DNA of 41,794 nt. Origin: Gammaproteobacteria bacterium (GTDB lineage Bacteria; Pseudomonadota; Gammaproteobacteria; Methylococcales; UBA2780). The DNA is taken from NCBI GenBank assembly GCA_003646305.1, contig QNFJ01000001.1, positions 1 to 41,794 on the forward strand, read 5' to 3'. A model generated the notes under the pieces. That model was not told where the DNA came from. It saw only the letters and a program-made list of their open reading frames with translations, and searched no databases. Every line of letters begins with the position of its first letter. Within the stretch, counting starts at the first letter, position 1. Below are positions 2,641 through 33,776 of this stretch, one piece after another. Both the position numbers and the translations under genes were made by a program.

Positions 2641-2655
2641 AGAAGGTATCAGAGC

Positions 2656-3447: not shown

Positions 3448-3493
3448 ACAGATTTAAATAACGAATTAATATTTAGCCGAGAAGGGAAAAATA

Positions 3494-4276: not shown

Positions 4277-4296
4277 CGTTTAATCGAGATAAACCT

Positions 4297-4884: not shown

Positions 4885-4942
4885 ATTTAAGTGAAGCGGT
4901 TGAAAGTATTGTTTTGTTTAAAATTTAGATTAAGAGGAAATC

Positions 4943-6139: not shown

Positions 6140-6151
6140 GGGAGAACGGGA

Positions 6152-7282: not shown

Positions 7283-7294
7283 TCGGCTAAGCAG

Positions 7295-8317
7295 ATGTCT
7301 AAAACGGAAAAATTAAGTTATCCGTTTGCGGAAAAGCCATCATTTGGTGGTTTGCTCGAAGTTTCGGAAGGACTGTTCTGGCTGCGGGTACCTATTCCGT
7401 TTGCGCTTGACCACATCAATCTCTGGTTATTGCGTGATGGTGATGGTTGGACAATCATTGATACGGGCTTTTTTAGCGCAGAAGTCGCGACAATCTGGGA
7501 ACGGCTGCTAGAAGAATTTTGTGCAGGCGCACCGATTAAAAAAATTGTGGTGACGCACTTTCATCCCGACCACGTTGGTATGGCGAGCTGGTTGGTTGAG
7601 CGAACCGGAGCAGAGCTGTGGATGAGCGAGCGTGAATTCCTGACCGTTCATCGTGTATGTCAGCCCTATTCTGAACGTGAGATTACGGTGAGGGCTATCT
7701 TCTTCGAGCGTTTTGGGCTAAATGAAAAGCAGCTTGCCAGTGTCGTTAACGCGAGAAGTAGTGATGTTGAGGGGCTTCCGGAAGCCCCGGTCTCATACCG
7801 CCGATTGGTCGGTGGACAAACGTTATCGATAAATGGTGAGAACTGGAACTTGTTCAGTTTCGCAGGCCATAGTCCTGAGCATATTTGTCTGCACAATGCG
7901 GAGCGTAATTTGCTGATCTCGGGGGACCAGGTGTTGCCATCAATCTCTCCGAATATTAGTGTCACCTTTTACGAGCCACAGGCAAATCCGTTAGCGGAGT
8001 ATCTGAACAGTTTATCGAGGCTATCCGAGCTGAATGAAGAGACACTGGTGCTACCGTCACATGGTTCTGTATTCCAGGGTCTTCATCGGAGGATTGATCA
8101 GCTTGAGGCCGGACATCAAAAGCAGCTGGACAGGCTTTTGGAGTTTTGTAGGCAACCGCGTGATGGTAAAGAGGCGCTGGAAGCGATGTTTGGTAACCGC
8201 TTAAGTGCATTCAATTTGAGTCTGGGGGTTGGTGAGGCCCAGGCACACCTGAATTATTTAGTGGCCAAGCGTGAGCTAAAACAAAATGATGAGTTTATTC
8301 CACATTACCAGCGATAG
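7295..8317 (+). CDS. MBL-fold metallo-hydrolase
   Basis: 340 aa with the HxHxDH motif in VVTHFHPDHVG and downstream GHSPEH and PSHG. Confidence 0.85.
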   Translation: MSKTEKLSYPFAEKPSFGGLLEVSEGLFWLRVPIPFALDHINLWLLRDGDGWTIIDTGFFSAEVATIWERLLEEFCAGAPIKKIVVTHFHPDHVGMASWLVERTGAELWMSEREFLTVHRVCQPYSEREITVRAIFFERFGLNEKQLASVVNARSSDVEGLPEAPVSYRRLVGGQTLSINGENWNLFSFAGHSPEHICLHNAERNLLISGDQVLPSISPNISVTFYEPQANPLAEYLNSLSRLSELNEETLVLPSHGSVFQGLHRRIDQLEAGHQKQLDRLLEFCRQPRDGKEALEAMFGNRLSAFNLSLGVGEAQAHLNYLVAKRELKQNDEFIPHYQR

Positions 8318-8383
8318 GGCTCAGATTGTATTGTTTCCTAACAGGCCCCATACCCTAATTAGCTGCAATAGAGATAATTAATA

Positions 8384-8806
8384 ATGAACGATACAGTGAC
8401 ATACAAAAGCCTGATTCTAGGTGATGATTTTCTTGATCCACCGCCCTCTTTTGAGGTGACCAATGAGGTGGTTGATAAATATATTCGTGCAACAAACGAT
8501 GCAACCCAGGAGCTTGGAGAGCCTAATAGTAGAGGCCAGCGAATTGCACCTCCTATGCTGGCTGCGGTTTATGTGATTGACGCGCTGCGTACCAAGGTCG
8601 GGCCGCCGGGTGGCGTTCATGCCAAGCAGCAATTTAAATTTCATCGCCCCGCATGCGTGGGTGAAACACTTTATACCTCGGCAAAGATTGTCAAACTCTA
8701 TCAGAAAAAAGAGCGGAATTACGTTGAGATGACGACTGAAACGCTTAACCAGGATGACGACTTAGTGACGACAGGGCTGATCACTCGGATATGGGGGAAA
8801 GAATAA
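8384..8806 (+). CDS. hotdog-fold protein, MaoC N-terminal-half type (no hydratase-2 catalytic motif)
   Basis: 140 aa. Its size and pattern fit a hotdog fold. It has no [ST]GDxNPxH motif. Its stop TAA (8804-8806) overlaps the next ATG (TAATG). Confidence 0.72.
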   Translation: MNDTVTYKSLILGDDFLDPPPSFEVTNEVVDKYIRATNDATQELGEPNSRGQRIAPPMLAAVYVIDALRTKVGPPGGVHAKQQFKFHRPACVGETLYTSAKIVKLYQKKERNYVEMTTETLNQDDDLVTTGLITRIWGKE

Positions 8807-9237
8807 TGACGATTAGCGAGGAATTACAAAGCTATAAAAACCTTTCTGTAGGAGATCGCCTGCCTGAAATTAAGGTACTGGTTGACCAGAATATGGTCGA
8901 TGCTTACGCGGATGCATCGGGTGATACCAATCCATTACACATTGATCCTGAATTTGCCAAAACAACCTTCTTCGGGCGAACGATTGCGCACGGACTTTTA
9001 ACTCTGGCATTTGTATCGCAAGTGCTATCTGAATGGAACTGGCAGGGATGGGCTTATGGTGGCGAATTAAGCGTTGCTTTTTTAGGTCCTGTATACCCTG
9101 GAGATGAGGTTTCAGTCAGTGGAGAAATAGATTTAATTGAGCAGCGCGAAGAGGGTGTTTTTGCGCGCTGTAATTTGGCTTGTTATTGCGGGGAGAGAGC
9201 CGTTGTTAAGGGAACAGCAACCTGCAAAGTTGGTTAA
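8806..9237 (+). CDS. MaoC-family (R)-specific enoyl-CoA hydratase subunit
   Basis: It carries the canonical hydratase-2 motif YADASGDTNPLHIDPEFA. I prefer the ATG at 8806 (MTISEE..., TAATG coupling, GGGGAAAG upstream) over the track start at 8791. Confidence 0.85.
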   Translation: MTISEELQSYKNLSVGDRLPEIKVLVDQNMVDAYADASGDTNPLHIDPEFAKTTFFGRTIAHGLLTLAFVSQVLSEWNWQGWAYGGELSVAFLGPVYPGDEVSVSGEIDLIEQREEGVFARCNLACYCGERAVVKGTATCKVG

Positions 9238-9248
9238 GGAGAAAATAG

Positions 9249-10652
9249 ATGAGTTACCGTAAAGATGGGGCTTTAGAGAAAAAAGGCGACAGCTATTACC
9301 ACCAGATTGAGTGTGCTTCAGAAGATGAAATCATCAAGATTCAGGAAGAGAAATTACAGGCGCAGATGGCCTATTTGTCTAAAAACTCAAAGCTCTATCA
9401 ACAGAAGTTTGAGAAGGCAGGTATTCGTTTTGATGAGATCAAAACACTAAAGGATTTAGCCAAAGTCCCTTTTACCGTTAAACAGGATCTTAGGGACAGT
9501 CTTCAAGCTGCTCCACCATTTGGTCTTCACCAAACAGCACCGCTTTCTGAGATTGTACAGATGCAGGCCTCGTCAGGAACCACCGGTAGTCCCGCTTATG
9601 TCGCTCTGACTGAAAACGATATTGAGATGTGGAATGAACTGAGTGCGCGAGGATTTTATGCCTGCGGTGTTAACCCAGGCGACTTTGTTTTACATGGCTT
9701 TTCCATGAGTAAAGGCTTTGTTGGCGGTATCCCTTGTATGCAGGCGATTCAATATATGGGGGCAATTGATGTTCCTGTGGGCGCTGATGGTGGGGTTGAT
9801 CGGCTGTTACGTGCCTGTGCGGATATTAAACCGCGAGTTATTATTGGCGCGCCTAATTTTCTACTGCATATTGCCTCGATGGCGCCCGATATTCTTGGTA
9901 AACGTGCCGATGAACTGGGCGTAGAAAGATTAGTTGTTGGTGGTGAACCAGGTGGTGGTATTCCTGCGATTCGCGAATCACTGGAAGAGAAATGGGGCGC
10001 GAAAGTCTGTGAAATGATGGGAGGGACTGATCTCGGCGTCATCTATTGGGCAGAATGTGATGAGCAAGATGGCATGCATATGATCTGTCAGGATCACATT
10101 ATTGTCGAATTGATTGACCCGGAAACAGAGCAGGTGATTCCTTTTGAGAAAGGCGTTACTGGCGAGCTGATTTATACCGCGATTGGCCGCGAGGCTTCAC
10201 CCGTTGTTCGTTTTAAAAGTGGCGATCACATTGTGGTGACCGATACGGCGTGTAGTTGTGGCCGGACAGGCCCTAAAATACGCTGCTTTGGGCGAACAGA
10301 TGATATGTTGATTGTCCGCGGCATCAATGTCTTTCCATCGGCAATCCAGGATCTTATTTTACAGCTACAACCTGACACCAACGGCGTGATGCGTGTCTGG
10401 GCCGATTTTGAAGGCCATACCACGCAAGCAAATCTGAAAGTATTGGTTGAGCGCGGCATTGATCGGTCGAAAGAGCAGGATCAGGAGCTTATCAGCCATG
10501 TGGAGCAAACCATTCGCAACGCCTTATCGTTCAAGGCGAAAGTGATTGTTGTCGATGCAAATAGTTTTGAAAAACCGGGTGTTGCAAAAGTAGCGCTAAC
10601 GCTTCGTGAGCAACCCGGCTTTCTCACTCTTGATGATGAGGGTGCTCAGTAA
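9249..10652 (+). CDS. PaaK-like adenylate-forming enzyme (phenylacetate-CoA ligase / coenzyme F390 synthetase family)
   Basis: 467 aa with the P-loop-like QASSGTTGSPAYV. The overall pattern is PaaK-family rather than FadD-type. Confidence 0.8.
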   Translation: MSYRKDGALEKKGDSYYHQIECASEDEIIKIQEEKLQAQMAYLSKNSKLYQQKFEKAGIRFDEIKTLKDLAKVPFTVKQDLRDSLQAAPPFGLHQTAPLSEIVQMQASSGTTGSPAYVALTENDIEMWNELSARGFYACGVNPGDFVLHGFSMSKGFVGGIPCMQAIQYMGAIDVPVGADGGVDRLLRACADIKPRVIIGAPNFLLHIASMAPDILGKRADELGVERLVVGGEPGGGIPAIRESLEEKWGAKVCEMMGGTDLGVIYWAECDEQDGMHMICQDHIIVELIDPETEQVIPFEKGVTGELIYTAIGREASPVVRFKSGDHIVVTDTACSCGRTGPKIRCFGRTDDMLIVRGINVFPSAIQDLILQLQPDTNGVMRVWADFEGHTTQANLKVLVERGIDRSKEQDQELISHVEQTIRNALSFKAKVIVVDANSFEKPGVAKVALTLREQPGFLTLDDEGAQ

Positions 10653-12262
10653 TGTCAATTATAAAGTCGACTGTACATAATCAGTCTGAAGAGTTTATCG
10701 CTAATCGAAATCGTTATCTTGAACGGATCGAAGAACTACAGGAACACCGGCAGCGCGCCCATTTAGGTGGGCCAGAGAAAGCACGGAAACGTCATATAGA
10801 ACACCGCGAACAGATATTGCCGCGTGATCGTATTCGGTTGCTGATTGACCCGGGTTCTCCTTTTTTTGAACTGGGTGAACTTGCGGGTGATGGTCTGCCC
10901 GAAGGGACTCAGGTCGGTGCAAGTGTTATTACCGGCGTCGGCCTCATTAACAGCCGTCAATGTATGATTATTGCCAATGATGCCACCGTAAAAGGCGGTA
11001 CTTATTTTCCAATGACCTGTAAAAAACATGTTCGGGCGCAGACGTTTGCGATACAGCATCGGCTACCCTGCATCACTTTAGTTCAAAGTGGTGGTGCATT
11101 TTTGCCAGAGCAGGAAGGTATTTTTCCTGATGAGGGTATGTTCGGAAGCATCTTTGTTAACCAGATCGAAATGTCCGCTCAGGGTATTCCACAGATTTCC
11201 GTGGTAATGGGCTCATCAACAGCAGGTGGTGCCTATATACCTGCGTTGTGTGATGAGATTGTCATCATTAAAGGGAAAGGTTTTATGTATCTGGGTGGCC
11301 CCCAACTGGTTGAAGCGGCGACAGGTGAGAAGGTCGAACATGAAGCGCTAGGCGGTGCAGAAATGCATTGTCGGGATAGTGGTGTTACCGATCATCTAGC
11401 AGAAGATGACGCACATGGTTTGAGTATGGTACGCGATATTGTGCGAAATCTGGGTAACCTACCCGAACAACGCTGGGATGTGGCTAAATCGGTTCCACCA
11501 CTATATCCGGTGGAAGAGATTTACGGCATTGTTAATCAGGATACGAAAATTCCGACCGCTAACCGACAAATCTTGGCTCGCTTAATTGATGGTAGTGACT
11601 TTGATGAATTCAAGGCCAATTATGGCGATACGCTGATGTGTGGCTTTGCCAAAATACATGGTTTTGAAATCGGTATTTTAGCTAATGATGGCGTGATGTT
11701 TAGTGAGTCTGCTAAAAAAGGGGCGCACTTTATTAATCTTTGCTGCCAGCGCGATATTCCACTGTTATTTGTGGCCGATGTTCCCGGTTTTATGGTGGGT
11801 GAACATGCCGAGCGGGGTGGTATCGCAAAAGATGGAGCAAAGTTCATCACCGCCATGTGTTCTGCAAAAGTACCTAAATATACCTTAATCACGGGAGGCT
11901 CTTACGGTGCCGGTTATTTAGCCATGTGTGGTCGCCCGTTTAAACCGAATGCCATGTTAGCCTGGCCATCGGGTCGTGCTGGCATTATGGGGCCGGAGCA
12001 GGTTGCCAATACGCTTGCAACGGTACGCGAAGATATCCTCAAACGAGAAGGAAAAAGTTGGACGGAAGAAGAGCGGGAAGAATTTAAAGCGCCACATCGG
12101 AAACGATTTGAGGATTCTGAAGGTGCTTATAACTTTGCCTCCAAGTTGTGGTATGACGCGGTGATTGATCCAACAGAAACACGCGAAGTGCTGGCACTTT
12201 TACTTGATCTGGCAGGACGTTCGCCCAAAGTGGAAACTAAATTTGGTGTATTCAGACAATGA
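10652..12262 (+). CDS. acyl-CoA carboxylase carboxyltransferase (beta) subunit, methylcrotonyl-/geranyl-CoA carboxylase type
   Basis: 536 aa. The layout is typical of MccB/AtuC (RIEELQEHRQRAHLGGPEKARKRH..., ANDATVKGGTYFPMT, GSSTAGGAYIPA, GSYGAGYLAMCG). Its start overlaps the previous stop (TAATG). Confidence 0.9.
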   Translation: MSIIKSTVHNQSEEFIANRNRYLERIEELQEHRQRAHLGGPEKARKRHIEHREQILPRDRIRLLIDPGSPFFELGELAGDGLPEGTQVGASVITGVGLINSRQCMIIANDATVKGGTYFPMTCKKHVRAQTFAIQHRLPCITLVQSGGAFLPEQEGIFPDEGMFGSIFVNQIEMSAQGIPQISVVMGSSTAGGAYIPALCDEIVIIKGKGFMYLGGPQLVEAATGEKVEHEALGGAEMHCRDSGVTDHLAEDDAHGLSMVRDIVRNLGNLPEQRWDVAKSVPPLYPVEEIYGIVNQDTKIPTANRQILARLIDGSDFDEFKANYGDTLMCGFAKIHGFEIGILANDGVMFSESAKKGAHFINLCCQRDIPLLFVADVPGFMVGEHAERGGIAKDGAKFITAMCSAKVPKYTLITGGSYGAGYLAMCGRPFKPNAMLAWPSGRAGIMGPEQVANTLATVREDILKREGKSWTEEEREEFKAPHRKRFEDSEGAYNFASKLWYDAVIDPTETREVLALLLDLAGRSPKVETKFGVFRQ

Positions 12263-14247
12263 TTAAACGAATTCTTATCGCAAACCGCGGCGAAATCGCC
12301 TGTCGAATTACACGAACCTGCCGTAAATTGGGGATTGATGCCGTTGGTGTCTATTCAACGGCAGATAGCCAGGGCCGCCATGTTAGAGAGATTGGTCATT
12401 CTGTTGCTATCGGTGGTGCCAGTGCAGCAGATAGTTACCTCAATATAGATAAAGTCATTGCAGCAGCTAAAGCGACTAACTGTGATGCCATTCATCCAGG
12501 TTATGGTTTTTTATCAGAAAACCCCGACTTTGCCGAGGCGGTTGAAGGTGCTGGGCTTATTTTTATTGGTCCCAGAGCGGATAGCTTACGCCGTTTTGGT
12601 GATAAGTCTGCCGCTAAAAAAGAGGCTATTAATGCCGATGTGCCGGTTATCCCGGGCAGTGATGGAAAGCTTTCCGATCCAGTGGAGATTGCCAAGATTG
12701 TTAAAAGCATGGAGCTTCCAGTGATGCTGAAAGCCGCCGCGGGTGGTGGTGGGAAGGGGATGCGGATTATCAGTGATCTGCCAAGTCTGGAATCCGATAT
12801 CAGCAGTGCCATGAGCGAAGCATTGCGTTCTTTTTCCGATGAGGCGCTACTGATTGAAAAATGTATCTACAATGCGCGTCATGTAGAGGTGCAGATTGCA
12901 GGTGATGGTGAAGGCAATGTCGTTCACCTTTTTGAACGAGAATGCTCTTTACAGCGTCGCCACCAAAAAGTTGTTGAAGAGGCGCCTGCTATTTTCCTCC
13001 GGCTAGAGCAGCGTGAAAAATTGTTGGAAGCTGCTTGCCGACTTGGTAAGCAGATTAATTTTAGAGGACTGGGCACTGTTGAGTTTCTTGTGCTGGGTGA
13101 CGATTACTATTTTCTGGAAGTAAACCCGCGGCTTCAGGTGGAGCACCCCGTTACTGAGAGCATAACTGGTCTGGATCTGGTCGAACTACAGATTCGCATT
13201 GCACAGGGAAGCGGTTTTGGCTTTCGCCAAGAAGAGGTCAGTGCTTCAGGTCACGCCATTGAGGTGCGCCTTTATGCCGAATCACCAGAGCAGAACTTTA
13301 TGCCAGCGACGGGAACAATTGAGCTTGTGAAATTCCCAGACGAGCACCTGCGCGTTGAATCCGGGGTCGATAGCGGTGACGAGATAAGTGCCTATTACGA
13401 CCCAATGGTTGCCAAACTGATTGCTACTGGAGAGAATCGAAATCAGGCGCTGGAACGTCTTCAAAAAGGAGTTGATGAAACCATTCTTTTTGGGGTTGAT
13501 AATAACCGTAATTTTCTTCAGCAACTGCTTCGCCATAACGAGGTTGTCGAGGACAAGATTGACACCGGCACGCTGGATCGCTGGTTAGCCGATTATGCCG
13601 ATGGAAAGGGTTCTCTTGAAGCAGAAAAACAGGCAGCTATTGCGGCTATTCTATGGCTAAACCAGCACCGAAAGAGTGGCTCATTAAATCCATGGGAAGG
13701 CGCCGATATCTTTAGTTATTGGGCATTAAGATCACCGAATGACAAACCTATTTATACCTTTAGCCTGATCGAAAATGAAGATGAGTGGAAGATCGCTTTT
13801 CTGAATATCGATGAGCAAGGGCTTGTTGCGCTGATGGTAAATGACCAGCGGATTGAATTGCGGCTGAAAGCTCAGGGCGATGACAGCTGGATGGCTGAAT
13901 TTCCGGAGGCACATATCCCTGTGACGGCTATTGCCACAACTGAACAGCTCTATATCCACGCACTTTCACAACAAAGTAGCTACCGAGTGGAGCAGGTTGT
14001 CCGCGATAAACAAGGGGAAGCGGCCGGTGCGAATAGTGTCATGGCACCGATGATGGGTGAGATTATCAAGGTGATTATTAAGGAAGGGGATAGCGTAGAA
14101 GAGGGTGATCTTCTGATTGTAATGGAGTCAATGAAAATGCAATTACAAATTGAAGCCGTTAAAGCGGGTACGGTAACTAACGTTCTTTGCAAGGCAGGCG
14201 ACAATGTTGCACGCGGTGAAGTTGTGGTAGAAGTCGATGCAGAATAA
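12259..14247 (+). CDS. acyl-CoA carboxylase biotin carboxylase + BCCP (alpha) subunit
   Basis: 662 aa. It has an ATP-grasp biotin carboxylase domain (ILIANRGEIACRI, KAAAGGGGKGMR, EVNPRLQVEHPVTE). The C-terminal biotinyl domain has the motif VMESMKMQ, with the Lys codon at 14134-14136. The start overlaps the beta subunit stop (ATGA). Confidence 0.92.
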   Translation: MIKRILIANRGEIACRITRTCRKLGIDAVGVYSTADSQGRHVREIGHSVAIGGASAADSYLNIDKVIAAAKATNCDAIHPGYGFLSENPDFAEAVEGAGLIFIGPRADSLRRFGDKSAAKKEAINADVPVIPGSDGKLSDPVEIAKIVKSMELPVMLKAAAGGGGKGMRIISDLPSLESDISSAMSEALRSFSDEALLIEKCIYNARHVEVQIAGDGEGNVVHLFERECSLQRRHQKVVEEAPAIFLRLEQREKLLEAACRLGKQINFRGLGTVEFLVLGDDYYFLEVNPRLQVEHPVTESITGLDLVELQIRIAQGSGFGFRQEEVSASGHAIEVRLYAESPEQNFMPATGTIELVKFPDEHLRVESGVDSGDEISAYYDPMVAKLIATGENRNQALERLQKGVDETILFGVDNNRNFLQQLLRHNEVVEDKIDTGTLDRWLADYADGKGSLEAEKQAAIAAILWLNQHRKSGSLNPWEGADIFSYWALRSPNDKPIYTFSLIENEDEWKIAFLNIDEQGLVALMVNDQRIELRLKAQGDDSWMAEFPEAHIPVTAIATTEQLYIHALSQQSSYRVEQVVRDKQGEAAGANSVMAPMMGEIIKVIIKEGDSVEEGDLLIVMESMKMQLQIEAVKAGTVTNVLCKAGDNVARGEVVVEVDAE

Positions 14248-22506: not shown

Positions 22507-24066
22507 ATGAATCTGTCTCAATGTGTTAATAGAGCTGTCCAATTTAACCCTCAGGGGTTAGCAACGGTTTTTGGGGAACGAAAACATACCTGGACAGAGT
22601 TTAAAGAGCGTATTGCTCGTTTGGCGCAAGGGCTAAAAGGACTGGGTGTAGAAAATGATGACCGGGTTGCCATCCTTGCGCTGAACAGCGACCGTTATCT
22701 GGAATATTTCTTTGCCGTCCCCTGGGCGGGGGGGATGGTTGTGCCGATCAATATTCGCCTGGCACCACCGGAAATTATTTTCACCCTGAATGATTCAGAA
22801 ACAAAAGTGCTGATTGTTGATGATGTTTTTGCAGCCATGCTACCCGTCCTGAAAGGTAAGCTGGATACGGTCACCCAAATTGTTTTTGTGGGTGAGGGTG
22901 AAACACCCGAAGGTTGTGTGAGTTATGAAGCGTTAGTTGAAAACAGCCAGCCTGCTGAAGATGCAGGCCGTTGCGATGAAGATTTGGCAGGACTGTTTTA
23001 CACAGGTGGCACAACGGGAAGATCCAAAGGGGTGATGCTGACGCATAATAACTTACTCAGTAATGCCTTGAATATTACCCCTGCAATGCAGATAAATGAT
23101 GAAGTCATCTACCTGCACTCTGCACCGATGTTTCACCTAGCCGATTGTGCGTCAACATTTGCCGTCACTCTCGCGGGCGGCAGCCACAGCTTTACACCAA
23201 AATTTGATCCCGAAGAGACCTTAAAAACGATCGTTGCAGACAAAGTCACTAACTGCCTGTTAGTGCCGACAATGCTAAATATGTTGGTTAATTTTCCGGG
23301 GCTTGAAAAATATGATTTATCGAGCTTTAAAAGAGTTTTATACGGCGCCTCCCCAATGCCCGAAGCGGTATTATTGAAAGCGATGCAGCTACTACCAGGT
23401 TGTCAGTTTATGCAAGGCTATGGCATGACCGAAGCATCGCCGCTAATTACTTTTCTGGATGCTAAATACCACGATCTTGATGGGCCTTATGCTGGTCGTT
23501 TAAAATCGGCAGGCCGTGCGGGGGTGGCGGTTGAGCTTAAAATTGCGGATGAAGATGACAAAGAACTGCCTCTTGGTGAGGTGGGTGAAGTGCTCACTCG
23601 AGGCCCTCATACAATGAAAGGGTATTGGAAGATGGAAGCGCTGAGTGAGGAAACCTTACGAGGTGGCTGGTTGCATACGGCTGATATGGGTTATATGGAT
23701 GAAGAAGGCTTTATCTATATTGTCGATCGCTCCAAAGATATGATTATTTCAGGTGGTGAAAATGTCTATTCTACCGAAACTGAAAATGCGATTTATCAAC
23801 ATCCCGCAGTAAGGGAGTGCGCGGTAATCGGCATTCCACATAAAGATTGGGGTGAGCAGGTTCATGCGGTGGTGGTGTTGAGTGAAGGACAACAGCTCAC
23901 TGAAGAGGCGCTAAAAAAATATTGCGCGGAGTTGATCGCTGGTTATAAATGTCCACGCAGCATCAGCTTTCAGAAAGAACCTCTACCTGTCAGCGGAGCG
24001 GGTAAAATCTTAAAAGCTGATTTACGCAAGCCCTACTGGGAAGGGCAAGATAAAGGGGTTAGCTGA
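22507..24066 (+). CDS. acyl-CoA synthetase (class I AMP-forming, FadD-like)
   Basis: 519 aa with AMP-binding motifs YTGGTTGRSKGV and QGYGMTEAS, DMIISGGENVYS, and the C-terminal GKILK. Confidence 0.9.
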   Translation: MNLSQCVNRAVQFNPQGLATVFGERKHTWTEFKERIARLAQGLKGLGVENDDRVAILALNSDRYLEYFFAVPWAGGMVVPINIRLAPPEIIFTLNDSETKVLIVDDVFAAMLPVLKGKLDTVTQIVFVGEGETPEGCVSYEALVENSQPAEDAGRCDEDLAGLFYTGGTTGRSKGVMLTHNNLLSNALNITPAMQINDEVIYLHSAPMFHLADCASTFAVTLAGGSHSFTPKFDPEETLKTIVADKVTNCLLVPTMLNMLVNFPGLEKYDLSSFKRVLYGASPMPEAVLLKAMQLLPGCQFMQGYGMTEASPLITFLDAKYHDLDGPYAGRLKSAGRAGVAVELKIADEDDKELPLGEVGEVLTRGPHTMKGYWKMEALSEETLRGGWLHTADMGYMDEEGFIYIVDRSKDMIISGGENVYSTETENAIYQHPAVRECAVIGIPHKDWGEQVHAVVVLSEGQQLTEEALKKYCAELIAGYKCPRSISFQKEPLPVSGAGKILKADLRKPYWEGQDKGVS

Positions 24067-24296
24067 GAATGGCGGCTACATATGATTAATCATTTCAAGC
24101 GGTTTGGTGTTATTTGATGGCCTCTATATCCTTTGAAAAACTGATCGATGATGAAGGGTTTGAAAATTCATAAATTCCAATCAAAGGAGTGTAAATTAAC
24201 AGGTTCTGTAGTAGGATTTGTAGGCTAAATAGTGGTAAAGGTAGATATTTAGATTTCAATTTCACAGTTTAAATAATATTCACAACGGAGAAAATA

Positions 24297-25157
24297 ATGA
24301 AGCAAGGAATTGTGTTTTTTACACTAATGACTATTTTGTTTTCAGGTGCAAGTTTTGCTAGCGAAGACTCTACACTTGAACAGATAAAAAAGACGGGGGA
24401 AATACGGATTGGATACCGCAAAAACGAGCCTCCTATGTCATTTTTGGATAAAGACAATCAACCAATAGGGTACTCAATAGAGCTTTGTTTAAACGTAGTG
24501 AAAGAAGTGAAAATTTTACTGAAGACACCAAACATCACAGTAACGTATGTTCCTGTTACAGCATCTAATCGCTTTGATGCTTTAATAGACAATAAAATTG
24601 ATATTCTTTGTGGTTCAACAACCAAAACACTCTCACGCTCAGAACTGGTCGATTTTACGCAACTATCATTTGTTACAGGAGCTGATTTGCTTAGCCTGAA
24701 AGCTAATAGAATAGCTTCAGTTTCAAGCCTTAAAGACAAAAAAGTTGCAGTGGTAAAAGATACAACTACCGAGGCAACGTTAAAGTCAGCTCTGAAGAGA
24801 CTGGAAAGCAATGCAAAAGTTATCACGGTTGCTTCTGCCAAAGAGGGTATAAAAGCTGTTGAAGATGGCAAGGTAGATGCCTTTTCGTCTGACCAGATTA
24901 TATTGATTGGGCTGATCGTCACTCATGAAGGTTCGGATAAATTTATACTGTCTGACCAGGTCTTTTCATACGAACCTTTTGCACTTGCAGTTAGACGAAA
25001 TGACTCTGAGTTTAGACTTATTGCTGATCGTGCAATCTCAAAGCTGAGTAGGACTGGGAATATTACACAAGTCTATAAGACTTGGTTTGGGCAATATATT
25101 ACGGAGATCCCTAGTTTGCTTGGTGCAGTATATATGCTGAATGCAATACCTGAATAG
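24297..25157 (+). CDS. periplasmic solute-binding protein, family 3 (amino-acid ABC type), orphan
   Basis: 286 aa with a signal peptide (MKQGIVFFTLMTILFSGASFASED). The SBP_bac_3-like pattern is present (IRIGYRKNEPPMSFLD...). It is visibly more AT-rich than its neighbours. No permease or ATPase gene is adjacent. Confidence 0.82.
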   Translation: MKQGIVFFTLMTILFSGASFASEDSTLEQIKKTGEIRIGYRKNEPPMSFLDKDNQPIGYSIELCLNVVKEVKILLKTPNITVTYVPVTASNRFDALIDNKIDILCGSTTKTLSRSELVDFTQLSFVTGADLLSLKANRIASVSSLKDKKVAVVKDTTTEATLKSALKRLESNAKVITVASAKEGIKAVEDGKVDAFSSDQIILIGLIVTHEGSDKFILSDQVFSYEPFALAVRRNDSEFRLIADRAISKLSRTGNITQVYKTWFGQYITEIPSLLGAVYMLNAIPE

Positions 25158-25213
25158 TTAGCATAATTAACACTCTTTTGGGAGCCTGGCCTCCTGTTGA
25201 GATGTAAATTGCT

Positions 25214-25274
25214 CCGCCATCACTAGACACTCTTTAAAGTTACAATGACCCTAAAGAGTGTCTAGTGATGGCGG
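25214..25274. repeat. Perfect 23-bp inverted repeat (CCGCCATCACTAGACACTCTTTA / TAAAGAGTGTCTAGTGATGGCGG) with 15-nt loop between convergent genes; bidirectional terminator or REP/MITE-like element
   Basis: Read directly: 25214-25236 is the exact reverse complement of 25252-25274. There is no U-tract on either side. Confidence 0.5.
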
Positions 25275-25316
25275 GGCGATTCAAAGTGCATCAGGCGAGT
25301 TAATTGATCTACTGCG

Positions 25317-26471
25317 CTATTTAACTTTCAATCCCATCGTATTGGCAATCAGATTACGCTGCATTTGTGAGGTTCCGGCGGTGATGGTTGTGCTACGGGC
25401 ATCGCGGTAGTGGCGCTGCATATCAAATTCCATCATATAAGAGTAACCGCCCATTATTTGCATACCCATATTGGCCACTTCGGCAAAGGTTTCTGAGCCG
25501 AATAGTTTGGCCTGACTCACTTCTCGCAGTGCCTTTTCGCCTTTTGCCATCTTGCTTGCGGCGCGCAACATCAGCATTCTGCTGGCATCTACTTTAGTTT
25601 GCATATCGGCCAACATATGGGCGATGGCCTGAAAGTTTCCGATCGGTTTGCCGAACTGTTTGCGCTCTTTTGCGTAGGCTAATGCCTGATCAACAACGGT
25701 TTGTGCGTTACCGGCATAACCGGCTGTGGTGACAACGCGTTCTAGCAGAAGGCCGGAGAGCATGCAGTCCCACCCTTCGTTCACTTCACCAATGCGCATT
25801 TCATCACTAATTCTGACATTGTTGAAGAAAATCTCATTGGTTCCGAGCATGCGACGACCTAATGTTTTAAGTCGGCGAATCTCTACGCCGGGTGTGTCGT
25901 AGGGCACCATAAAGAGGGAGATCCCTTTTTGATAGGGAACGGTGGTATCGGTTTTACAGTAAAGATTGATAACGTTATTTTTTGCATCGGCTGCGGTGGA
26001 AAATAGTTTTTGTCCACTAATGACCCAATCATCACCCTCTCGTACCGCGGTGGTGCGCATATTGCCAGCATCCGAGCCTGCATCGGGTTCGGTCATGGAG
26101 ATCGACATGCGAATGTCACCGTTGATCACTTGTGGGATGTATTGTTTTTTCTGGGCTTCGCTGCCGTGGCGAAGGATATTCAGGGCATTAAATACCGATA
26201 GCGCGTAGGCACCGAGAAAGTCATAGCCTTTACGGCCTAGCTCTTCACCAACGATGACCATATCGAGGACATTGCCATCATAACCACCAAACTCTTCTGG
26301 GAAGGGCAGGCCAAGCAGTCCCATTTCGACCCATTGGTCGTAAACTTCATAAGGATAAAGCCCTTGCTCATCGTGCTCACGAATGTAGTCGGCTGTGGCA
26401 ATGTCGTCCATCATGCGGCGAACACTATCGCGCAAAAGATTTTGTTCTTCTGTTAATTCAAAATTCATCAT
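25317..26471 (-). CDS. acyl-CoA dehydrogenase family protein
   Basis: 384 aa with MTEPDAGSDAG and a helix-G Glu (GLLLERV). The C-terminal motif is TITAGTSQMQRN, with Ala at the MCAD Glu position. The start overlaps the upstream stop (TAATG). Confidence 0.9.
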   Translation of the reverse strand: MMNFELTEEQNLLRDSVRRMMDDIATADYIREHDEQGLYPYEVYDQWVEMGLLGLPFPEEFGGYDGNVLDMVIVGEELGRKGYDFLGAYALSVFNALNILRHGSEAQKKQYIPQVINGDIRMSISMTEPDAGSDAGNMRTTAVREGDDWVISGQKLFSTAADAKNNVINLYCKTDTTVPYQKGISLFMVPYDTPGVEIRRLKTLGRRMLGTNEIFFNNVRISDEMRIGEVNEGWDCMLSGLLLERVVTTAGYAGNAQTVVDQALAYAKERKQFGKPIGNFQAIAHMLADMQTKVDASRMLMLRAASKMAKGEKALREVSQAKLFGSETFAEVANMGMQIMGGYSYMMEFDMQRHYRDARSTTITAGTSQMQRNLIANTMGLKVK

Positions 26472-27650: not shown

Positions 27651-28112
27651 TTAATTCACCTCGGGACGGCGTTTAAGCATCAGTGGGGTTTCGCCTTGCT
27701 GAACAATATCACCATGTTGGTTAATGACTGAGCGCAACAGAACCACGATGCCTCTGTCGGGCTTGCTTGTTTCACGGGTTTCGATCACTTCCAGTACCAC
27801 ATGGATGGTGTCATCGATAAAGATGGGGCCCTTGAATTTCCAGTCGAGACCCAGCAGAGCAATCACGGTTTGTGAAATGCCGGCAATTAAATCTGTTCGT
27901 GTTCCAAGGCCAGAAGCGATGGAAAGGCCGAGCAGCCCATGAGCGATTCGTTTACCAAAATGAGTCTCTTTACAATATTCGGCATCGGTATGTAATTGTA
28001 CGAAATCGCCAGAGAGTCCGGCAAAGTTGACAATATCGGTTTCGGTGATGGTTCGCCCGGGCGATTGCCAGGAATCGCCTTTGTTCAAGTCATCAAAATA
28101 GATTGGATCCAT
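27651..28112 (-). CDS. MaoC-family (R)-specific enoyl-CoA hydratase
   Basis: 153 aa with a hydratase-2-like motif (FAGLSGDFVQLHTDAEY) followed by RIAHGLLGLS. Confidence 0.85.
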   Translation of the reverse strand: MDPIYFDDLNKGDSWQSPGRTITETDIVNFAGLSGDFVQLHTDAEYCKETHFGKRIAHGLLGLSIASGLGTRTDLIAGISQTVIALLGLDWKFKGPIFIDDTIHVVLEVIETRETSKPDRGIVVLLRSVINQHGDIVQQGETPLMLKRRPEVN

Positions 28113-28126
28113 TGTTTTCTCCTCAT

Positions 28127-29299
28127 TTATTTTTTTGTTTTGCCGATGGCACCGGCTGCTTCAAGGTTTTTAATTTTATTGTCTGAAAATCCCCAGTGTG
28201 AGAGCACCTGATAGGTGCTGTTTCCCGCCGCTTCAGGTGGTGTGGGTTGCGCGGTTTTAGTTCGACTAAACCGGGGGCTGGGGGCTGGTTGGGTAATACC
28301 GTCGACCGTTATAAATGTTCCGCGATGTTGGTTATGTGGATGATCGGCCGCTTCGGCCATATTTAGAACCGGCGCAAAGCAGGCATCCGTTCCTTCTAAA
28401 AGTGCGCACCACTCATCCGCTGTTTTCTCGACAAACCGGGTTGCGAATAGCTGTTTGGCATGTGGCCAGTTGTTGCGGTCGTCGAGGTCTGGAAAGGTTG
28501 CTGGATCAAAGCCGATACGGGTCAATAATTCTTTACAAAATTTGGCCTCTATCGGTGCAATGGTGATGACGCCCTGTTCAATTAAGTCGAGCATAGCATC
28601 GATGACAACGCCGGAATGAATGCCAATATCACAATGATTTTTAAGGTTGCCTAGTACCGCATGAGGAATGCCGCCAACACCAACTTGAATGGTCGAACGG
28701 TCGGGAATAAGTGTGCTGGCCAATTGGCCAATCTGCCATTCAACCGCGCTTAGTTGAGGGGTAGATAATTCGACGGGCGGATGGCGAGCCTCAACAAAGA
28801 GGTCGATATTAATATCAGCAGGTAGATCGGCTCCATAACTATAAGGCACATCGGTATTAATTTCGGCAATCACGACCCGTGCCCGGCGAGCGGCTAATGC
28901 GGTGTAATCGTTACATAAGCCGAGATTTAGTTGGCCGCTTTCAGGGTGCTGGGAAAGTTGTAGTAAAACGCAATCTGCTCGAAGGGAACCATCATAAAAA
29001 GCTTGAGAAAAGGCGCTGTATTGCTGTGGAAGTTGGTCAAGAACACCAGCCTTTGCCAGAGCAGCTGCCTGACCGATGCCCCCGTAGGAATAAAAAGAGA
29101 GGTGGTCGCTCTGTTCAGCTTTAAAGGTGTCTGAATAGAGCGCCCCAAGAAAGAGGGTGCAGCCACTAATCTCCTCTCTTTCAGCGACCAGTTTTTGGGT
29201 GAGGGTGAGCGGTTCGGCCGTGCATTGCCCACAAATAATATGATCGCCCGCGCGAAGATAATCTTTAAAATGAAAACTATCTGCCGAGACGATCTTCAT
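28127..29299 (-). CDS. In-frame chimera: N-terminal domain of an acetyl-CoA hydrolase/transferase-family protein fused to the C-terminal half of an alpha-methylacyl-CoA racemase (family III CoA-transferase fold); possibly a deletion-generated pseudogene
   Basis: 390 aa. Residues 1-246 follow the acetyl-CoA hydrolase/transferase pattern (VVIAEINTDVPYSYG, TIQVGVGGIPHAVLGNL, DIGIHSGVVIDAMLDLIEQGVIT). Residues 247-390 match the AMACR/MCR C-terminal half (IAPIEAKFCKELLTRIGF, WPHAKQLFATRFVEKTADEWCALLEGTDACFAPVLNMAEAADHPHNQHRGTFITVDGITQPAPSPRFS). The junction is near nt 28556-28566. Confidence 0.6.
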   Translation of the reverse strand: MKIVSADSFHFKDYLRAGDHIICGQCTAEPLTLTQKLVAEREEISGCTLFLGALYSDTFKAEQSDHLSFYSYGGIGQAAALAKAGVLDQLPQQYSAFSQAFYDGSLRADCVLLQLSQHPESGQLNLGLCNDYTALAARRARVVIAEINTDVPYSYGADLPADINIDLFVEARHPPVELSTPQLSAVEWQIGQLASTLIPDRSTIQVGVGGIPHAVLGNLKNHCDIGIHSGVVIDAMLDLIEQGVITIAPIEAKFCKELLTRIGFDPATFPDLDDRNNWPHAKQLFATRFVEKTADEWCALLEGTDACFAPVLNMAEAADHPHNQHRGTFITVDGITQPAPSPRFSRTKTAQPTPPEAAGNSTYQVLSHWGFSDNKIKNLEAAGAIGKTKK

Positions 29300-29315: not shown

Positions 29316-30482
29316 TCAATAGGACTTCGGTAGCCCGAGAACCCTTTCGGCGATGTAGCATAAAGCGAGTTGTGGGCTGATGGGTGCGATACGTGGCACC
29401 ATCACTTCACGAAGATAGCGCTCCACATGATATTCCTTTGCATAACCAAAACCACCATGCGTCATAACGGCTGTTTCACAGGCATGAAAACCGGCTTCAC
29501 CGGCGAGGTATTTGGCCGCATTAGCCGCCGCGCCACAGGGTTTGCCGTTATCGTATTGCCAAGCTGCGGACATCACCATTAACCAGGCCGCTTCCAGCTC
29601 TGACCAGCATTTGGCGAGTGGGTGTTGAATGCTCTGATTTTGACCAATGGGGCGATTAAAAACGATCCGCTCTTTGGCGTAATTGGTTGCCCGTTCTATG
29701 GCCAGTCTGCCGAGTCCAATCGCCTCTCCAGCAATCAGCACCCGTTCAGGGTTCATGCCATGTAGAATATATTCAAAGCCACGACCCTCTTCACCGATTC
29801 GATCCTCAATTGGAATTTCAAGGCCATCGATGAATAGCTCATTTGAGTCAACACATTTACGACCCATTTTATCAATGAGGTGTACATCGATTTTGCTGCG
29901 GTCGAAATCGGTATAAAAGAGGCTCAGTCCCTGAGTCGGTTTTTTAACTTCTTCGAGTGGTGTTGTCCGTGCCAGGAGGAGGATTTTATCGGCCACTTGC
30001 GCGGTAGAGATCCAGACTTTTTGGCCATTAACGATATAACGATCTCCTTTGCGAACGGCCATGGTTTTTAGCTGTGTCGTGTTTAGGCCGGTATTGGGTT
30101 CGGTGACACCAAAGCAGGCTTTTTCTCGTCCCTCAGCCATGGGTCTTAGCATCCGCTGTTTTTGCTCTTCGGTGCCAAAAACAGCGACAGGATTGAGACC
30201 AAAAATATTGATATGCACCGCTGAAGCTCCTGACATGCCCGCTCCGGACTGGGCAATGGTGCTAGCCATGATGGCCGCTTCAGTAATGCCTAAGCCCGAA
30301 CCCCCATAGGCTTCAGGAATGCAGATGCCGATCCATCCCCCATCGGCCATGGCACGATAGAAGTCGTGGGGGAAAATGCCGTCGGTGTCGCGCTGTAACC
30401 AATAGTCATCATCAAAATCACGGCATATTTTCTGAATCGAATCCTGGATACTGTTTTGGTCGTCTGTCTGTTCAAAATTCAT
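29316..30482 (-). CDS. acyl-CoA dehydrogenase family protein
   Basis: 388 aa with VTEPNTGLNT and a helix-G Glu (GMNPERV). The C-terminus is unusual: VPRIAPISPQLALCYIAERVLGLPKSY. Confidence 0.9.
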   Translation of the reverse strand: MNFEQTDDQNSIQDSIQKICRDFDDDYWLQRDTDGIFPHDFYRAMADGGWIGICIPEAYGGSGLGITEAAIMASTIAQSGAGMSGASAVHINIFGLNPVAVFGTEEQKQRMLRPMAEGREKACFGVTEPNTGLNTTQLKTMAVRKGDRYIVNGQKVWISTAQVADKILLLARTTPLEEVKKPTQGLSLFYTDFDRSKIDVHLIDKMGRKCVDSNELFIDGLEIPIEDRIGEEGRGFEYILHGMNPERVLIAGEAIGLGRLAIERATNYAKERIVFNRPIGQNQSIQHPLAKCWSELEAAWLMVMSAAWQYDNGKPCGAAANAAKYLAGEAGFHACETAVMTHGGFGYAKEYHVERYLREVMVPRIAPISPQLALCYIAERVLGLPKSY

Positions 30483-30485
30483 GAT

Positions 30486-31739
30486 TTAATTCTCTACTTT
30501 GTATTGTCTGGTGATGTCCTCCGGGGACTGAATAACCTTTTGTTTAAGCATCTCGTCGATCTGCTGCTTTGTATAACCGGCCTCTTGCAGTAACTCGATG
30601 CTGTGCTCACCTTGCCGAGGTGCTGGTCGGATTGGCTCTGCGGAGCTATCAGACCAGGTGGCCGGAACAGCCATAGAGAGGATATCGCCTTCTGTTGGAT
30701 GGTTTTGATGACGGAAGAAGTTGGTCGCAATGAGGTGGGGGTCTGACTGGATACTGTTTAAATCATGCATCGGCATCACCGGAATATCAGCTTTGTTGAG
30801 AATCTCAAGCCACTCTGCGGTGCTTCTGGTTTCCATCATGCCGGAGAACCACTTATAAACCGCATCAAAATCTTTAGCGCGGGAAGAAAAGTCTTTGAAA
30901 AGTGGATCGGTTTCTGGAATATCTTCGCGTCCAATGGCTTTAAAGAAGTGATTCCAATGTTTATCGGTATAGACCAGTGCACAGACATAGCCATCTTTGG
31001 TTTTATAAGGGCGACGGTATTTCGATAGTTGACGCGGATAGCCGCCATTATCAAGTGGGGGTTCGTAAGTGAGGCCGCCCATATGATCGCCGAGAGTGAA
31101 GCTGGTCATGGTTTCGAACATGGGAATATCGACACGTTGCCCTTTTCCGGTTCGATCTCGGTGAACCAGTGTTGCCAAAATCGCTCCCACAGCGGCCAGC
31201 CCGACAACACGGTCTGCGATGGCCGAAGGAACATAGCGGGGCTCTCCGCCGTCAACGCGTGTAAAAAGATGGGGCAGGGTTGATGCGCCCTGGATCAGGT
31301 CATCATAGGCCGGTTTTGCGGCATAAGGCCCCTCTTGCCCGTAACCAAACATCCCCGCGTAAATAATACGAGGGTTAACGGCTGAAACCACCTCATAACT
31401 GAGGCCAAGACGTTTCATTGCATTGGCACGGATGTTATAGACAAGGATATCGGCATTGGCACACAGCTTTAACAGCGCTTCGCGCCCCTCATCCTGTTTT
31501 AAGTCGAGGGTAATGGAGCGTTTACTGCGGTTTGCATTTAGAAAGATAGGGCCCATTCCAGGATTGCGGAGCGGGCCGATTGTGCGGACAAGATCTCCTT
31601 CTGGAGATTCGACCTTAATGACATCAGCCCCATAATCGCCGAGGGTCTGCGTTGCGTAAGGGCCCATTAATACGGTTGTCATATCAATAATGCGGACGCC
31701 CTCTAAAGGCCCTTTGTTGGTGGGCTCAGATTGGTTCAT
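30486..31739 (-). CDS. family III CoA-transferase (CaiB/BaiF family)
   Basis: 417 aa. The N-terminus has GVRIIDMTTVLMGPYATQTLGDYGADVIKVE. The conserved Asp region is SAIADRVVG. Confidence 0.9.
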   Translation of the reverse strand: MNQSEPTNKGPLEGVRIIDMTTVLMGPYATQTLGDYGADVIKVESPEGDLVRTIGPLRNPGMGPIFLNANRSKRSITLDLKQDEGREALLKLCANADILVYNIRANAMKRLGLSYEVVSAVNPRIIYAGMFGYGQEGPYAAKPAYDDLIQGASTLPHLFTRVDGGEPRYVPSAIADRVVGLAAVGAILATLVHRDRTGKGQRVDIPMFETMTSFTLGDHMGGLTYEPPLDNGGYPRQLSKYRRPYKTKDGYVCALVYTDKHWNHFFKAIGREDIPETDPLFKDFSSRAKDFDAVYKWFSGMMETRSTAEWLEILNKADIPVMPMHDLNSIQSDPHLIATNFFRHQNHPTEGDILSMAVPATWSDSSAEPIRPAPRQGEHSIELLQEAGYTKQQIDEMLKQKVIQSPEDITRQYKVEN

Positions 31740-32582: not shown

Positions 32583-33776
32583 TTATTTATTGGGTTTATC
32601 TAAGACAATTTGCATCTTCAGAAAGTTATCGATCTCTTCATCGGAGTAACCAGCTTCCTGCAAAATAGTATGATTGTGCTGGCCATAGTTGGGCGGCACA
32701 TTACGAAATTCTCCGGGTGTCCGCGATAACTTAATGGGAATGCCAGTACCTCTATAGTCGCCAGACTCTAAGACCATCTCCCGCGCTACGGTTTGTGGAT
32801 GCACCATCACGTCAGGGATGGTTTCAACCGGCCCTGCGGGTATGCCTTTGTTTATCAGTATTTGACAAAGTGCGCGGCCATCCGTTTTTTCCATCATATC
32901 TTCAAGAATGGCTCGCAATACAACTCTATTTTCAGTCCGTTTTCCGTTGTTTAGAAAGCGTGGATCAGCTGCGATCTCTTCGCGTTCAAGCAGCTTACAA
33001 AGACCTGCAAACTGACCGTCATTACCAATGGCTAGAAAGACTAAACCGGTTCTGGTTTTAAATAGATCATATGGGGTGATGCTGGGGTGCGCACTGCCGA
33101 GTCGTTCAGGCTCTTTTCCAGATAGAAACCAACTGGCAGCATGTGGGTGAAGCAGGCTAATCGCCGTGTCGTACAGGCTCACTTCCATTGATTGGCCAAG
33201 ACCCGATTTTTCTCGTTCGTATAGCGCAAGAAGAACCGCCGTTGCGGCATTCATGCCGGTGGTAATATCGACAATCGGTACGCCCACACGGATGGGTAAA
33301 CGTTGGGCTTCACCATTAATGCTGATTAAACCAGACATCGCCTGGGCTACTGCATCATAGCCGGGTGATCCGGCATAAGGGCCTGTGCTGCCAAAGCCGG
33401 TTACGCAGCAGTGAATCAGCTTAGGAAACTTTTTCTTAAGAACTTCCTCGTAACCGATACCCCATTTTTCGAGGGTGCCAATCTTAAAGTTTTCAACGAG
33501 AACATCCGCTTCTTGCAATAGGCGAAATAGAATCTCCTGTCCTGCCTTCTCACGAAGGTTAAGGGCGAGACATTTTTTATTGCGGTTAACACCGTCAAAA
33601 TAGGCACTGCCTCCCTCATGAAAAGGAGGCCCCCAGCCGCGAGTTTCATCGCCGGCAGGGGGTTCGATTTTAATGATTTCAGCGCCATGATCCCCGAGTA
33701 TCTGGGCGCACAAAGGGCCGCCCAGAACACGAGATAGGTCAATGACTTTTACACCATCAAGTGAGCCTTTTGACAT
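32583..33776 (-). CDS. family III CoA-transferase (CaiB/BaiF family)
   Basis: 397 aa. The N-terminus has GVKVIDLSRVLGGPLCAQILGDHGAEIIKIE. The conserved Asp is in VPIVDITTG. Confidence 0.9.
   Translation of the reverse strand: MSKGSLDGVKVIDLSRVLGGPLCAQILGDHGAEIIKIEPPAGDETRGWGPPFHEGGSAYFDGVNRNKKCLALNLREKAGQEILFRLLQEADVLVENFKIGTLEKWGIGYEEVLKKKFPKLIHCCVTGFGSTGPYAGSPGYDAVAQAMSGLISINGEAQRLPIRVGVPIVDITTGMNAATAVLLALYEREKSGLGQSMEVSLYDTAISLLHPHAASWFLSGKEPERLGSAHPSITPYDLFKTRTGLVFLAIGNDGQFAGLCKLLEREEIAADPRFLNNGKRTENRVVLRAILEDMMEKTDGRALCQILINKGIPAGPVETIPDVMVHPQTVAREMVLESGDYRGTGIPIKLSRTPGEFRNVPPNYGQHNHTILQEAGYSDEEIDNFLKMQIVLDKPNK

Follow-up and report, generated by a model that had tools for sequence, protein, structure and literature searches.

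The stretch of DNA analyzed here (the window) comprises the first 41,794 nucleotides (nt; 41.8 kb) of contig QNFJ01000001.1, which belongs to the gammaproteobacterial metagenome-assembled genome (MAG) GCA_003646305.1. It contains an operon for acyl-CoA catabolism, in which one open reading frame (ORF) combines parts of two enzymes from different families. In related bacteria, two separate genes are found at this position, here called g1 and g2. The former encodes a Cat1/AbfT-like homologue of family I CoA-transferases, the latter an alpha-methylacyl-CoA racemase of the MCR/AMACR type. The fused ORF is very probably the remnant of a single in-frame deletion which joined the adjacent genes g1 and g2. 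The following features, for which the closest intact locus (L004, GCA_053986525.1) served as reference, were identified:

28127..29299, minus strand: fused ORF with ATG start, 390 amino acids (aa) plus stop codon
28562..29299, minus strand: g1-derived part (residues 1-246), 87% identical to residues 1-246 of the 417-aa L004 g1
28127..28561, minus strand: g2-derived part (residues 247-390 and the native g2 stop), 75% identical to L004 g2 residues 247-396
28561..28567, minus strand: putative deletion junction and microhomology zone, with the join between 28562 and 28561
28610..28612, minus strand: GGC codon of G230, aligned to the catalytic Glu238 of AbfT; motif G-I-H-S-G at residues 226-230
28547..28549, minus strand: GAG codon of E251, which corresponds to MCR Glu241 and lies within 'APIEAKF'; the sole remaining one of the three catalytic residues of MCR

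The genes around the fused ORF are co-directional and separated by spacers of 1-16 nt or overlap by 1 nt. The product of the ORF is identical to RLA24699.1, annotated as 'MAG: hypothetical protein DRQ61_00130 [Gammaproteobacteria bacterium]'. When the sequence was compared to PDB chains, two parts of this protein were assigned to two different enzyme families. Residues 3-248 matched 4-hydroxybutyrate CoA-transferases (3gk7, E=2.4e-30, chain residues 21-256 of 448; 3d3u, E=4e-30), while residues 244-369 matched MCR/AMACR (2g04, E=6e-23, chain residues 237-352 of 359; 1x74, E=1.5e-22, chain residues 234-358 of 360). The Pfam model CoA_transf_3 was detected at residues 242-354, just profile positions 237-358 of 366 being covered. 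AcetylCoA_hydro aligned to residues 13-158 with a score of 20.2 bits, below the cut-off of 24 bits, and for AcetylCoA_hyd_C (PF13336), the C-terminal domain of family I, there was no Pfam match in the fused ORF. The NCBIfam model TIGR03948 (butyryl-CoA:acetate CoA-transferase) covered residues 13-247 alone (E=1e-19). Judged by these E-values, the matches of both parts lie far beyond chance. No domain model spanning the junction was found among the Pfam, NCBIfam and PDB matches.

All matches separate around residue 247, where an earlier note on this DNA, made from the sequence alone, had placed the switch between the two parts of a chimeric protein. Its coordinates of the ORF are correct, as is the statement that the C-terminal domain of family I is absent. 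A domain scan, which had been recommended as a check, gave the anticipated picture in that CoA_transf_3 was confined to the C-terminal half; AcetylCoA_hydro fell on the N-terminal half as expected but remained below the threshold. In structural terms, the g1-derived part consists of the N-terminal domain of family I and the first strand and helix of the C-terminal domain, which corresponds to the N-terminal 59% of a g1-type protein. The g2-derived part is equivalent to MCR residues ~237-358, i.e. to some of the small domain followed by the C-terminal segment that returns to the large domain. Aligning both families with MAFFT (alignment A1) forces their unrelated halves onto each other; the two halves of the fused ORF have no common co-evolutionary history.

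Separate full-length g1 (417-420 aa) and g2 (388-396 aa) genes were found in three syntenic loci, L004, L001 (a Cycloclasticus MAG locus) and L012 (a metagenome contig), each time flanked by the acyl-CoA dehydrogenase and MaoC hydratase genes also seen in the window. The two-gene arrangement, for which a search in related genomes had been proposed, thus exists, and the assumption that a deletion fused two neighbouring genes was borne out by it. The gene order of L004 matches that of the window over >12 kb. It begins with a DUF35-type zf/OB protein, an SCP-x-type thiolase, a family III CoA-transferase (397 aa), an FMN reductase and a TfoX_N protein, continues with a second family III CoA-transferase (417 aa), an acyl-CoA dehydrogenase (388 aa), g1, g2 and the MaoC hydratase (153 aa), and ends with two acyl-CoA dehydrogenases and an acyl-CoA ligase. 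L004 g1 is a 417-aa AcetylCoA_hyd_C protein and g2 a 396-aa CoA_transf_3 protein; the start of g2 overlaps the stop of g1 by one base. In L001, g1 and g2 encode 420 and 388 aa, respectively, in the same arrangement, which was also seen in L012. The PF13336 domain deleted from the fused ORF is present in g1 of the intact relatives. The intact g1 genes are located as follows:

L004, 6748-8001: intact g1
L001, 2608-3870: intact g1
L017, 6001-7269: intact g1

The last of these, L017, is a distant locus, whose g1 is 53% identical to L004 g1. Its MCR-type gene is 61% identical to L004 g2 and has kept the His, Asp and Glu residues. Further members of the L017 cluster are a family III transferase, a dehydrogenase, a protein similar to MaoC/mesaconyl-CoA hydratase, an HpcH-type lyase and a TRAP transporter. 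Since g1 is paired with an MCR-type gene even in this distant locus, the full-length forms are ancestral. The opposite polarity, a short ancestral form with insertions in the relatives, was ruled out, as both halves are cut-down versions of widespread full-length families.

Two of the related contigs, L012 and L007, were recovered with an anchor pattern derived from the flanking dehydrogenase. L007 (MAAB01013766.1) showed three gaps of 58-61 nt relative to L001 (at 1468/1469, 5111/5112 and 7651), one of which frameshifts the racemase gene. Each gap lies at the border of blocks with 94%, 98% or 99.8% identity, indicating assembly chimerism rather than a biological lesion. The frameshifted g2 of this strain-chimeric assembly was therefore dismissed as an independent second loss of the racemase.

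Compared to L004, the window has a single gap of 1253 nt at the switch point, and the nucleotide identity on its two sides is 84% and 88%. The corresponding gap relative to L001 measures 1262 nt. At the join, codon 246 of g1 (ACC, 28564-28562) is followed by codon 247 of g2 (ATT, 28561-28559), which lies inside the interval of 28556-28566 estimated in the earlier note. The sequence of the window reads GGC GTC ATC ACC / ATT GCA CCG (G V I T / I A P), that of L004 GGT GTA GTG ACC AAC GCG at the left breakpoint and CGT TAC ATC TCC ATT GCA CCG at the right breakpoint. The parental sites are alike, imperfectly, over 7 nt (xTx xCC A, 28567-28561), which appear as ATC ACC A in the window and as GTG ACC A and ATC TCC A in L004. 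The reading frame of g2 in L004 is shifted by +2 against that of g1. Because the loss of 1253 nt (1253 mod 3 = 2) offsets this shift, both remnants share one frame, and the nucleotide alignment revealed that each is read in its own native frame. The tryptic peptide across the junction would be NHCDIGIHSGVVIDAMLDLIEQGVITIAPIEAK.

According to the proposed course of events, one deletion of ~1.25 kb within the conserved acyl-CoA catabolic operon would have produced the fused ORF by taking the last ~171 codons of g1 and the first 246 codons of g2. The ends may have been joined within the short imperfect direct repeat (ATC-xCC-A), presumably by replication slippage or illegitimate recombination. 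A short direct repeat at the endpoint of a deletion is the usual footprint of these processes. Translation is predicted to begin at the start codon of g1 and to stop at the native stop codon of g2, 14 nt short of the start of the MaoC gene.

Two further contigs, one from JGI (sample 3300033151, L002) and one assembled by Logan from SRR6478915 (L003), carry this ORF with an identical junction. L002 differs from the window by 12 substitutions and a 51-nt insertion/deletion (indel) elsewhere, L003 by 2 substitutions. The three contigs are separate assemblies of slightly different strain consensus sequences. This is important for the question whether the fusion arose by an assembly or binning artefact, i.e. 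from a mis-joined metagenome contig, since the source is a MAG and since the related public contig L007, with its three gaps of ~59 nt, is chimeric. Such an explanation deserves hardly any credence. Because the fusion was found in three assemblies differing by single-nucleotide polymorphisms (SNPs), namely the NCBI MAG, JGI 3300033151 and Logan SRR6478915, it is not an assembly error. Moreover, at most 7 nt are shared at the join, which is far under the k-mer of any assembler, the gap of 1253 nt is not k-mer sized, and the sequences to the left and right of it are about equally diverged from L004 (84% and 88% identity). The deletion would predate the split of the three sampled strain variants.

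To assess the distribution of the fusion, the 120 best matches to the fused protein in a protein database search were examined. The fused protein forms a cluster with one member, and all other matches cover at most 70% of the query. They comprise 116 proteins of the acetyl-CoA hydrolase/transferase family (~410-450 aa), which match the N-terminal part, and three CoA_transf_3 proteins (~390 aa), which match the C-terminal part. Among these 120 matches, there was neither another protein with the fused architecture nor one whose identity to either half lay between 74-77% and 100%. Scans of the collections genome_contigs and metagenome_contigs with the fused protein yielded no relatives and no further copy. 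Hence, of the two findings which the earlier note had named as contradicting a fusion remnant, neither was made: a full-length homologue with the same architecture was lacking in the best 120 matches and in both collection scans, and no domain model runs across the junction. The protein search listed L004 g2 but missed L004 g1, which is 87% identical to the N-terminal part and recorded in the contig index, so that absence from this search is no proof. In the literature, nothing was found on the sample and protein identifiers.

The intact g2 gene encodes a full-length orthologue of MCR (1x74, E=1.2e-114, residues 7-357 versus 2-347). In L004, L001 and L017, the equivalents of His126, Asp156 and Glu241 are kept, the first two within the motifs 'aGHDlnyi' and 'llGDyggg', respectively. 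The large domain of MCR is composed of M1-A188 and R331-G360, the small domain of V189-P300 (PMC10967716). H126 and D156 are contributed by the large domain, whereas E241 is supplied by the second subunit of the intertwined dimer, as part of its small domain, and pairs with His126 of the partner subunit (PMC10967716). The fused ORF lacks His126, Asp156 and the CoA-binding Rossmann-like domain; the Glu241 equivalent E251 alone is retained. The alignment with MCR starts at chain residue 234, and both residues are in the deleted part, in agreement with the statement that the catalytic His/Asp pair of the racemase belongs to the missing half. As far as can be predicted from these residues, the fused ORF cannot be a racemase by itself.

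In g1, a glycine occupies the position at which the glutamate of the 'HSE' motif (AbfT E238) is expected. The motif G-I-H-S-G is common to the fused ORF and to the intact g1 genes of L004 and L001, and 114 of the ~116 family members from the best 120 matches possess Gly at the position of the catalytic Glu (H-S-G or H-T-G). The earlier note had drawn attention to H-S-G instead of H-S-E. This reading is correct insofar as there is a Gly at the position of the AbfT glutamate, but H-S-G does not represent decay, because the Gly is kept throughout the subfamily including the intact orthologues. An interpretation as degeneration was also ruled out by ThnP, which is active with the same Gly. In this Cat1-like protein (N47_E41340), 'the conserved active glutamate ... 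is replaced by G238' (PMC11659651). ThnP is a strictly intramolecular CoA-transferase acting on dicarboxylic acyl-CoA in anaerobic naphthalene degradation, and its gene adjoins that of the acyl-CoA dehydrogenase ThnO (PMC11659651). It was the only characterised relative with a Glu-to-Gly exchange found. By analogy, g1 may work like ThnP, and either common descent or independent gain of the Gly is possible. The g1 subfamily is large, conserved and uncharacterised, and its members recur in linkage with an MCR-type racemase, an acyl-CoA dehydrogenase and a MaoC hydratase. Following the same analogy, it may represent a widespread set of intramolecular CoA-transferases on dicarboxylic acyl-CoAs.

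The neighbouring genes of the fused ORF are all full length and show ratios of nonsynonymous to synonymous substitution rates (dN/dS) of 0.02-0.07 relative to L004, i.e. strong purifying selection. For the two remnants, values of 0.10 and 0.18 were obtained. However, a comparison of the two intact genomes likewise showed the lowest conservation in these segments; because they evolve fastest there as well, the higher values of the remnants are not evidence of relaxation. A Tajima relative-rate test with three taxa (window versus L004, L001 as outgroup) was performed, in which amino acid replacements were counted. The N-terminal part of the fused ORF had 9 replacements unique to the window and 11 unique to L004, the C-terminal part 7 of each kind, resulting in totals of 16 and 18. 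For five neighbouring genes pooled, the numbers were 23 (window) and 31 (L004). As a rough estimate, this would exclude an excess of more than ~8 replacements, which corresponds to at most ~0.01 neutral substitutions per site, compared to a synonymous divergence of ~0.7-0.8 from L004. Either the deletion would have occurred within the last few per cent of the window branch, or the fused ORF would still be constrained. Among the three assemblies, all variation is outside the fused ORF. Since there are 0 SNPs within it, the population data do not discriminate between a young deletion and constraint.

Constraint would be expected if the chimera were a genuine new domain combination that is translated, folded and retained by selection, for instance as a non-catalytic acyl-CoA-binding, scaffold or regulatory subunit. 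The ORF is intact and in frame, it is preceded by a Shine-Dalgarno-like motif (GGTGAG ahead of the ATG), the window lineage does not evolve faster, and the fusion is fixed in three strain variants. Furthermore, Glu251, the counterpart of a residue that in MCR acts across the dimer interface, has been kept. It is conceivable that the racemase fragment with its cross-subunit glutamate might dock onto one of the family III CoA-transferases of the operon. On the other hand, the protein is a singleton without diverged homologues in the collections searched, both breakpoints lie inside domains and not between them, and selection on the ORF is undemonstrated because the copies vary outside of it only. 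By chance alone, one in three deletions preserves the reading frame, and lack of acceleration is expected if the deletion is young. Altogether, a new domain combination has to be considered very unlikely.

The order of genes in the operon is family III CoA-transferase, acyl-CoA dehydrogenase, the g1/g2 position, MaoC hydratase and two further acyl-CoA dehydrogenases. Together with a second family III gene, the flanking genes are:

30486..31739, minus strand: upstream family III CoA-transferase, 417 aa, with Tyr at the position of MCR His126
29316..30482, minus strand: acyl-CoA dehydrogenase, 388 aa, upstream flank, intact and 98% identical to the L004 orthologue, used as synteny anchor
27651..28112, minus strand: MaoC-type hydratase, 153 aa, downstream flank, intact and 97% identical to L004
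25317..27649, minus strand: two downstream acyl-CoA dehydrogenases, 392 and 384 aa, intact, dN/dS ~0.02
32583-33776: second family III gene

The best matches of both family III genes are CoA-transferases (SUGCT, CaiB/BaiF, Frc). Because they have Tyr at the position of MCR His126 and Asp at that of Glu241, they are not racemases. The deleted C-terminal segment of g1 and N-terminal segment of g2 had no close match elsewhere in the window; a translocation within the window was thus searched for and not found. Thus, neither an intact racemase nor an intact g1 is left in the 41.8 kb, and for this region, the earlier claim that no intact racemase remains at the locus holds. The GAGGAG Shine-Dalgarno sequence of the MaoC gene is intact within the 14-nt spacer behind the stop codon of the fused ORF. 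Presumably, the fused ORF is translated and the downstream genes are expressed without any polar effect of the deletion.

A real deletion might still be restricted to one allele, with the parental activities kept by an intact g1-g2 allele in the population or by a second copy elsewhere. This possibility is compatible with the deletion mechanism and rivals only the consequence drawn from it. It would fit a young deletion, the coverage of about one third of the 129-kb contig by the analysis, and the non-exhaustive protein search, in which L004 g1 was unlisted. However, all three assemblies contain the deleted form, the listed matches leave a gap in identity to either half from 74-77% up to 100%, and the window harbors no remnants of the deleted segments. 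A second allele or copy is therefore unlikely, albeit less so than a new domain combination.

In family I CoA-transferases, the active site is located between the two domains. Because the breakpoints cut through domains, and two of the three catalytic residues of the racemase as well as the whole second domain of the transferase are gone, an inactive remnant is favoured. Most likely, the chimera is such a remnant, and both parental activities were lost from the locus. By its predicted features, the fused ORF is not a functional member of either the racemase or the family I transferase family, as the features which define them are missing. The terms 'non-functional' and 'non-polar', which the earlier note had applied to the remnant, are well-founded inferences. 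Several points weigh against the deduced origin and inactivity. There is no sign of decay, the fused ORF containing no internal stop codon and the window lineage showing no excess of changes, and the relative-rate result seems to fit a very recent deletion and continued purifying selection equally well. The exact ancestral microhomology is beyond reconstruction, as the closest intact relative diverges by ~13-16% in nucleotides; slippage or recombination was inferred from the present sequences. Finally, 41.8 kb were examined, and a further copy of the racemase or of g1 elsewhere in the genome could compensate for the loss.

The window as a whole represents an acyl-CoA catabolic island. It encodes several acyl-CoA dehydrogenases, enoyl-CoA hydratases, a biotin carboxylase/carboxyltransferase pair, two SCP-x-type thiolases, two acyl-CoA ligases, an NMO-family oxidoreductase, an RND efflux system, an OYE-type flavoprotein and a sigma-54 activator. 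None of the proteins encoded by the operon of the fused ORF reached the equivalog cut-off of an NCBIfam model. The nearest models were those of enzymes for dicarboxylate or alicyclic acyl-CoA. Dicarboxylic, alicyclic or methyl-branched acyl-CoAs seem to be the substrates processed by this operon. A carboxyltransferase (536 aa) and a biotin carboxylase fused to a biotin carboxyl carrier protein (662 aa) are encoded at 10652-14247, and acyl-CoA dehydrogenases, two enoyl-CoA hydratases, a hexapeptide transferase, a protein with metallo-beta-lactamase fold and an AMP-binding enzyme upstream of them at 1486-8317. We take the layout of 1486-14247 to recall the geranyl-CoA or methylcrotonyl-CoA carboxylase clusters (Atu/Liu-type) for methyl-branched acyl-CoAs.

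The last dehydrogenase gene of the operon is separated from the gene of the acyl-CoA ligase (22507-24066) by ~1.25 kb (24067-25317), which contain a gene for a family 3 solute-binding protein (24297-25157, plus strand). This segment is absent from the otherwise collinear L004, where the two genes are 27 nt apart, and constitutes a second indel between both lineages. In the AMP-binding acyl-CoA ligase of L002, a perfect in-frame tandem duplication of 51 nt (17 aa; 11531-11632) was detected, which extends the protein from 519 to 536 aa. Its site in the window is ~23716-23766, and it reflects strain polymorphism or else an artefact of assembly. An orthologue of the flanking 388-aa dehydrogenase (93% aa identity) was found on L008 (Ga0164315_10013160, 1670-2836) in a wholly different neighbourhood without g1, g2 and MaoC. 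Because of this location, the dehydrogenase is not confined to the operon.

As to annotation, the record RLA24699.1 ('hypothetical protein', Pfam CoA_transf_3) is best regarded as a fused remnant of two genes and should be counted neither as a racemase nor as a CoA-transferase when the metabolism of this MAG is reconstructed. Although the operon is strongly conserved otherwise, the lineage would recently have lost two of its genes at this locus, those of a 2-methylacyl-CoA racemase and of a ThnP-like, Glu-less CoA-transferase homologue. If it is true that no second copies exist, the substrate range of the pathway would be narrower in stereochemical or positional respect. If, on the other hand, the chimera is folded and selected, a new protein produced by an intra-operon deletion would have been caught in the act. 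The more interesting by-product of the analysis is the Glu-less subfamily of family I to which the intact parent g1 belongs.

The event itself is ordinary and lineage-specific. It is of a well-known kind, the fusion of adjacent genes by a deletion, and has not created a new kind of enzyme. Deletion-made in-frame fusion remnants are a common class of bacterial pseudogenes. What the fused ORF has in common with them is a single deletion between short direct repeats, the truncation of both parents, an otherwise intact synteny and the distribution in one lineage. It is set apart just by its presumed youth, being as yet without secondary lesions. With MCR of M. tuberculosis (1x74), the C-terminal part shares the family III CoA-transferase fold, and the aligned region includes the Glu241 equivalent. 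By contrast, everything before MCR residue ~237 is missing, including the large domain and half of the small domain. Residues 3-248 resemble the 4-hydroxybutyrate CoA-transferase AbfT and the Cat1 group of family I (3gk7, 3d3u) over chain residues ~11-256 with E-values of about 1e-30, and the fused ORF retains the G-x-G-G-I-P loop and the strand which bears the catalytic residue of AbfT. It differs from AbfT by the lack of the C-terminal domain (PF13336) and by Gly230 in place of the catalytic Glu238. The parent g1 can be compared to ThnP, as both are Cat1-like members of family I with Gly at the position of the active-site Glu and an adjacent acyl-CoA dehydrogenase gene. However, ThnP originates from a sulfate-reducing Deltaproteobacterium, g1 from Cycloclasticus-like Gammaproteobacteria, and the pathways in which they are embedded differ.

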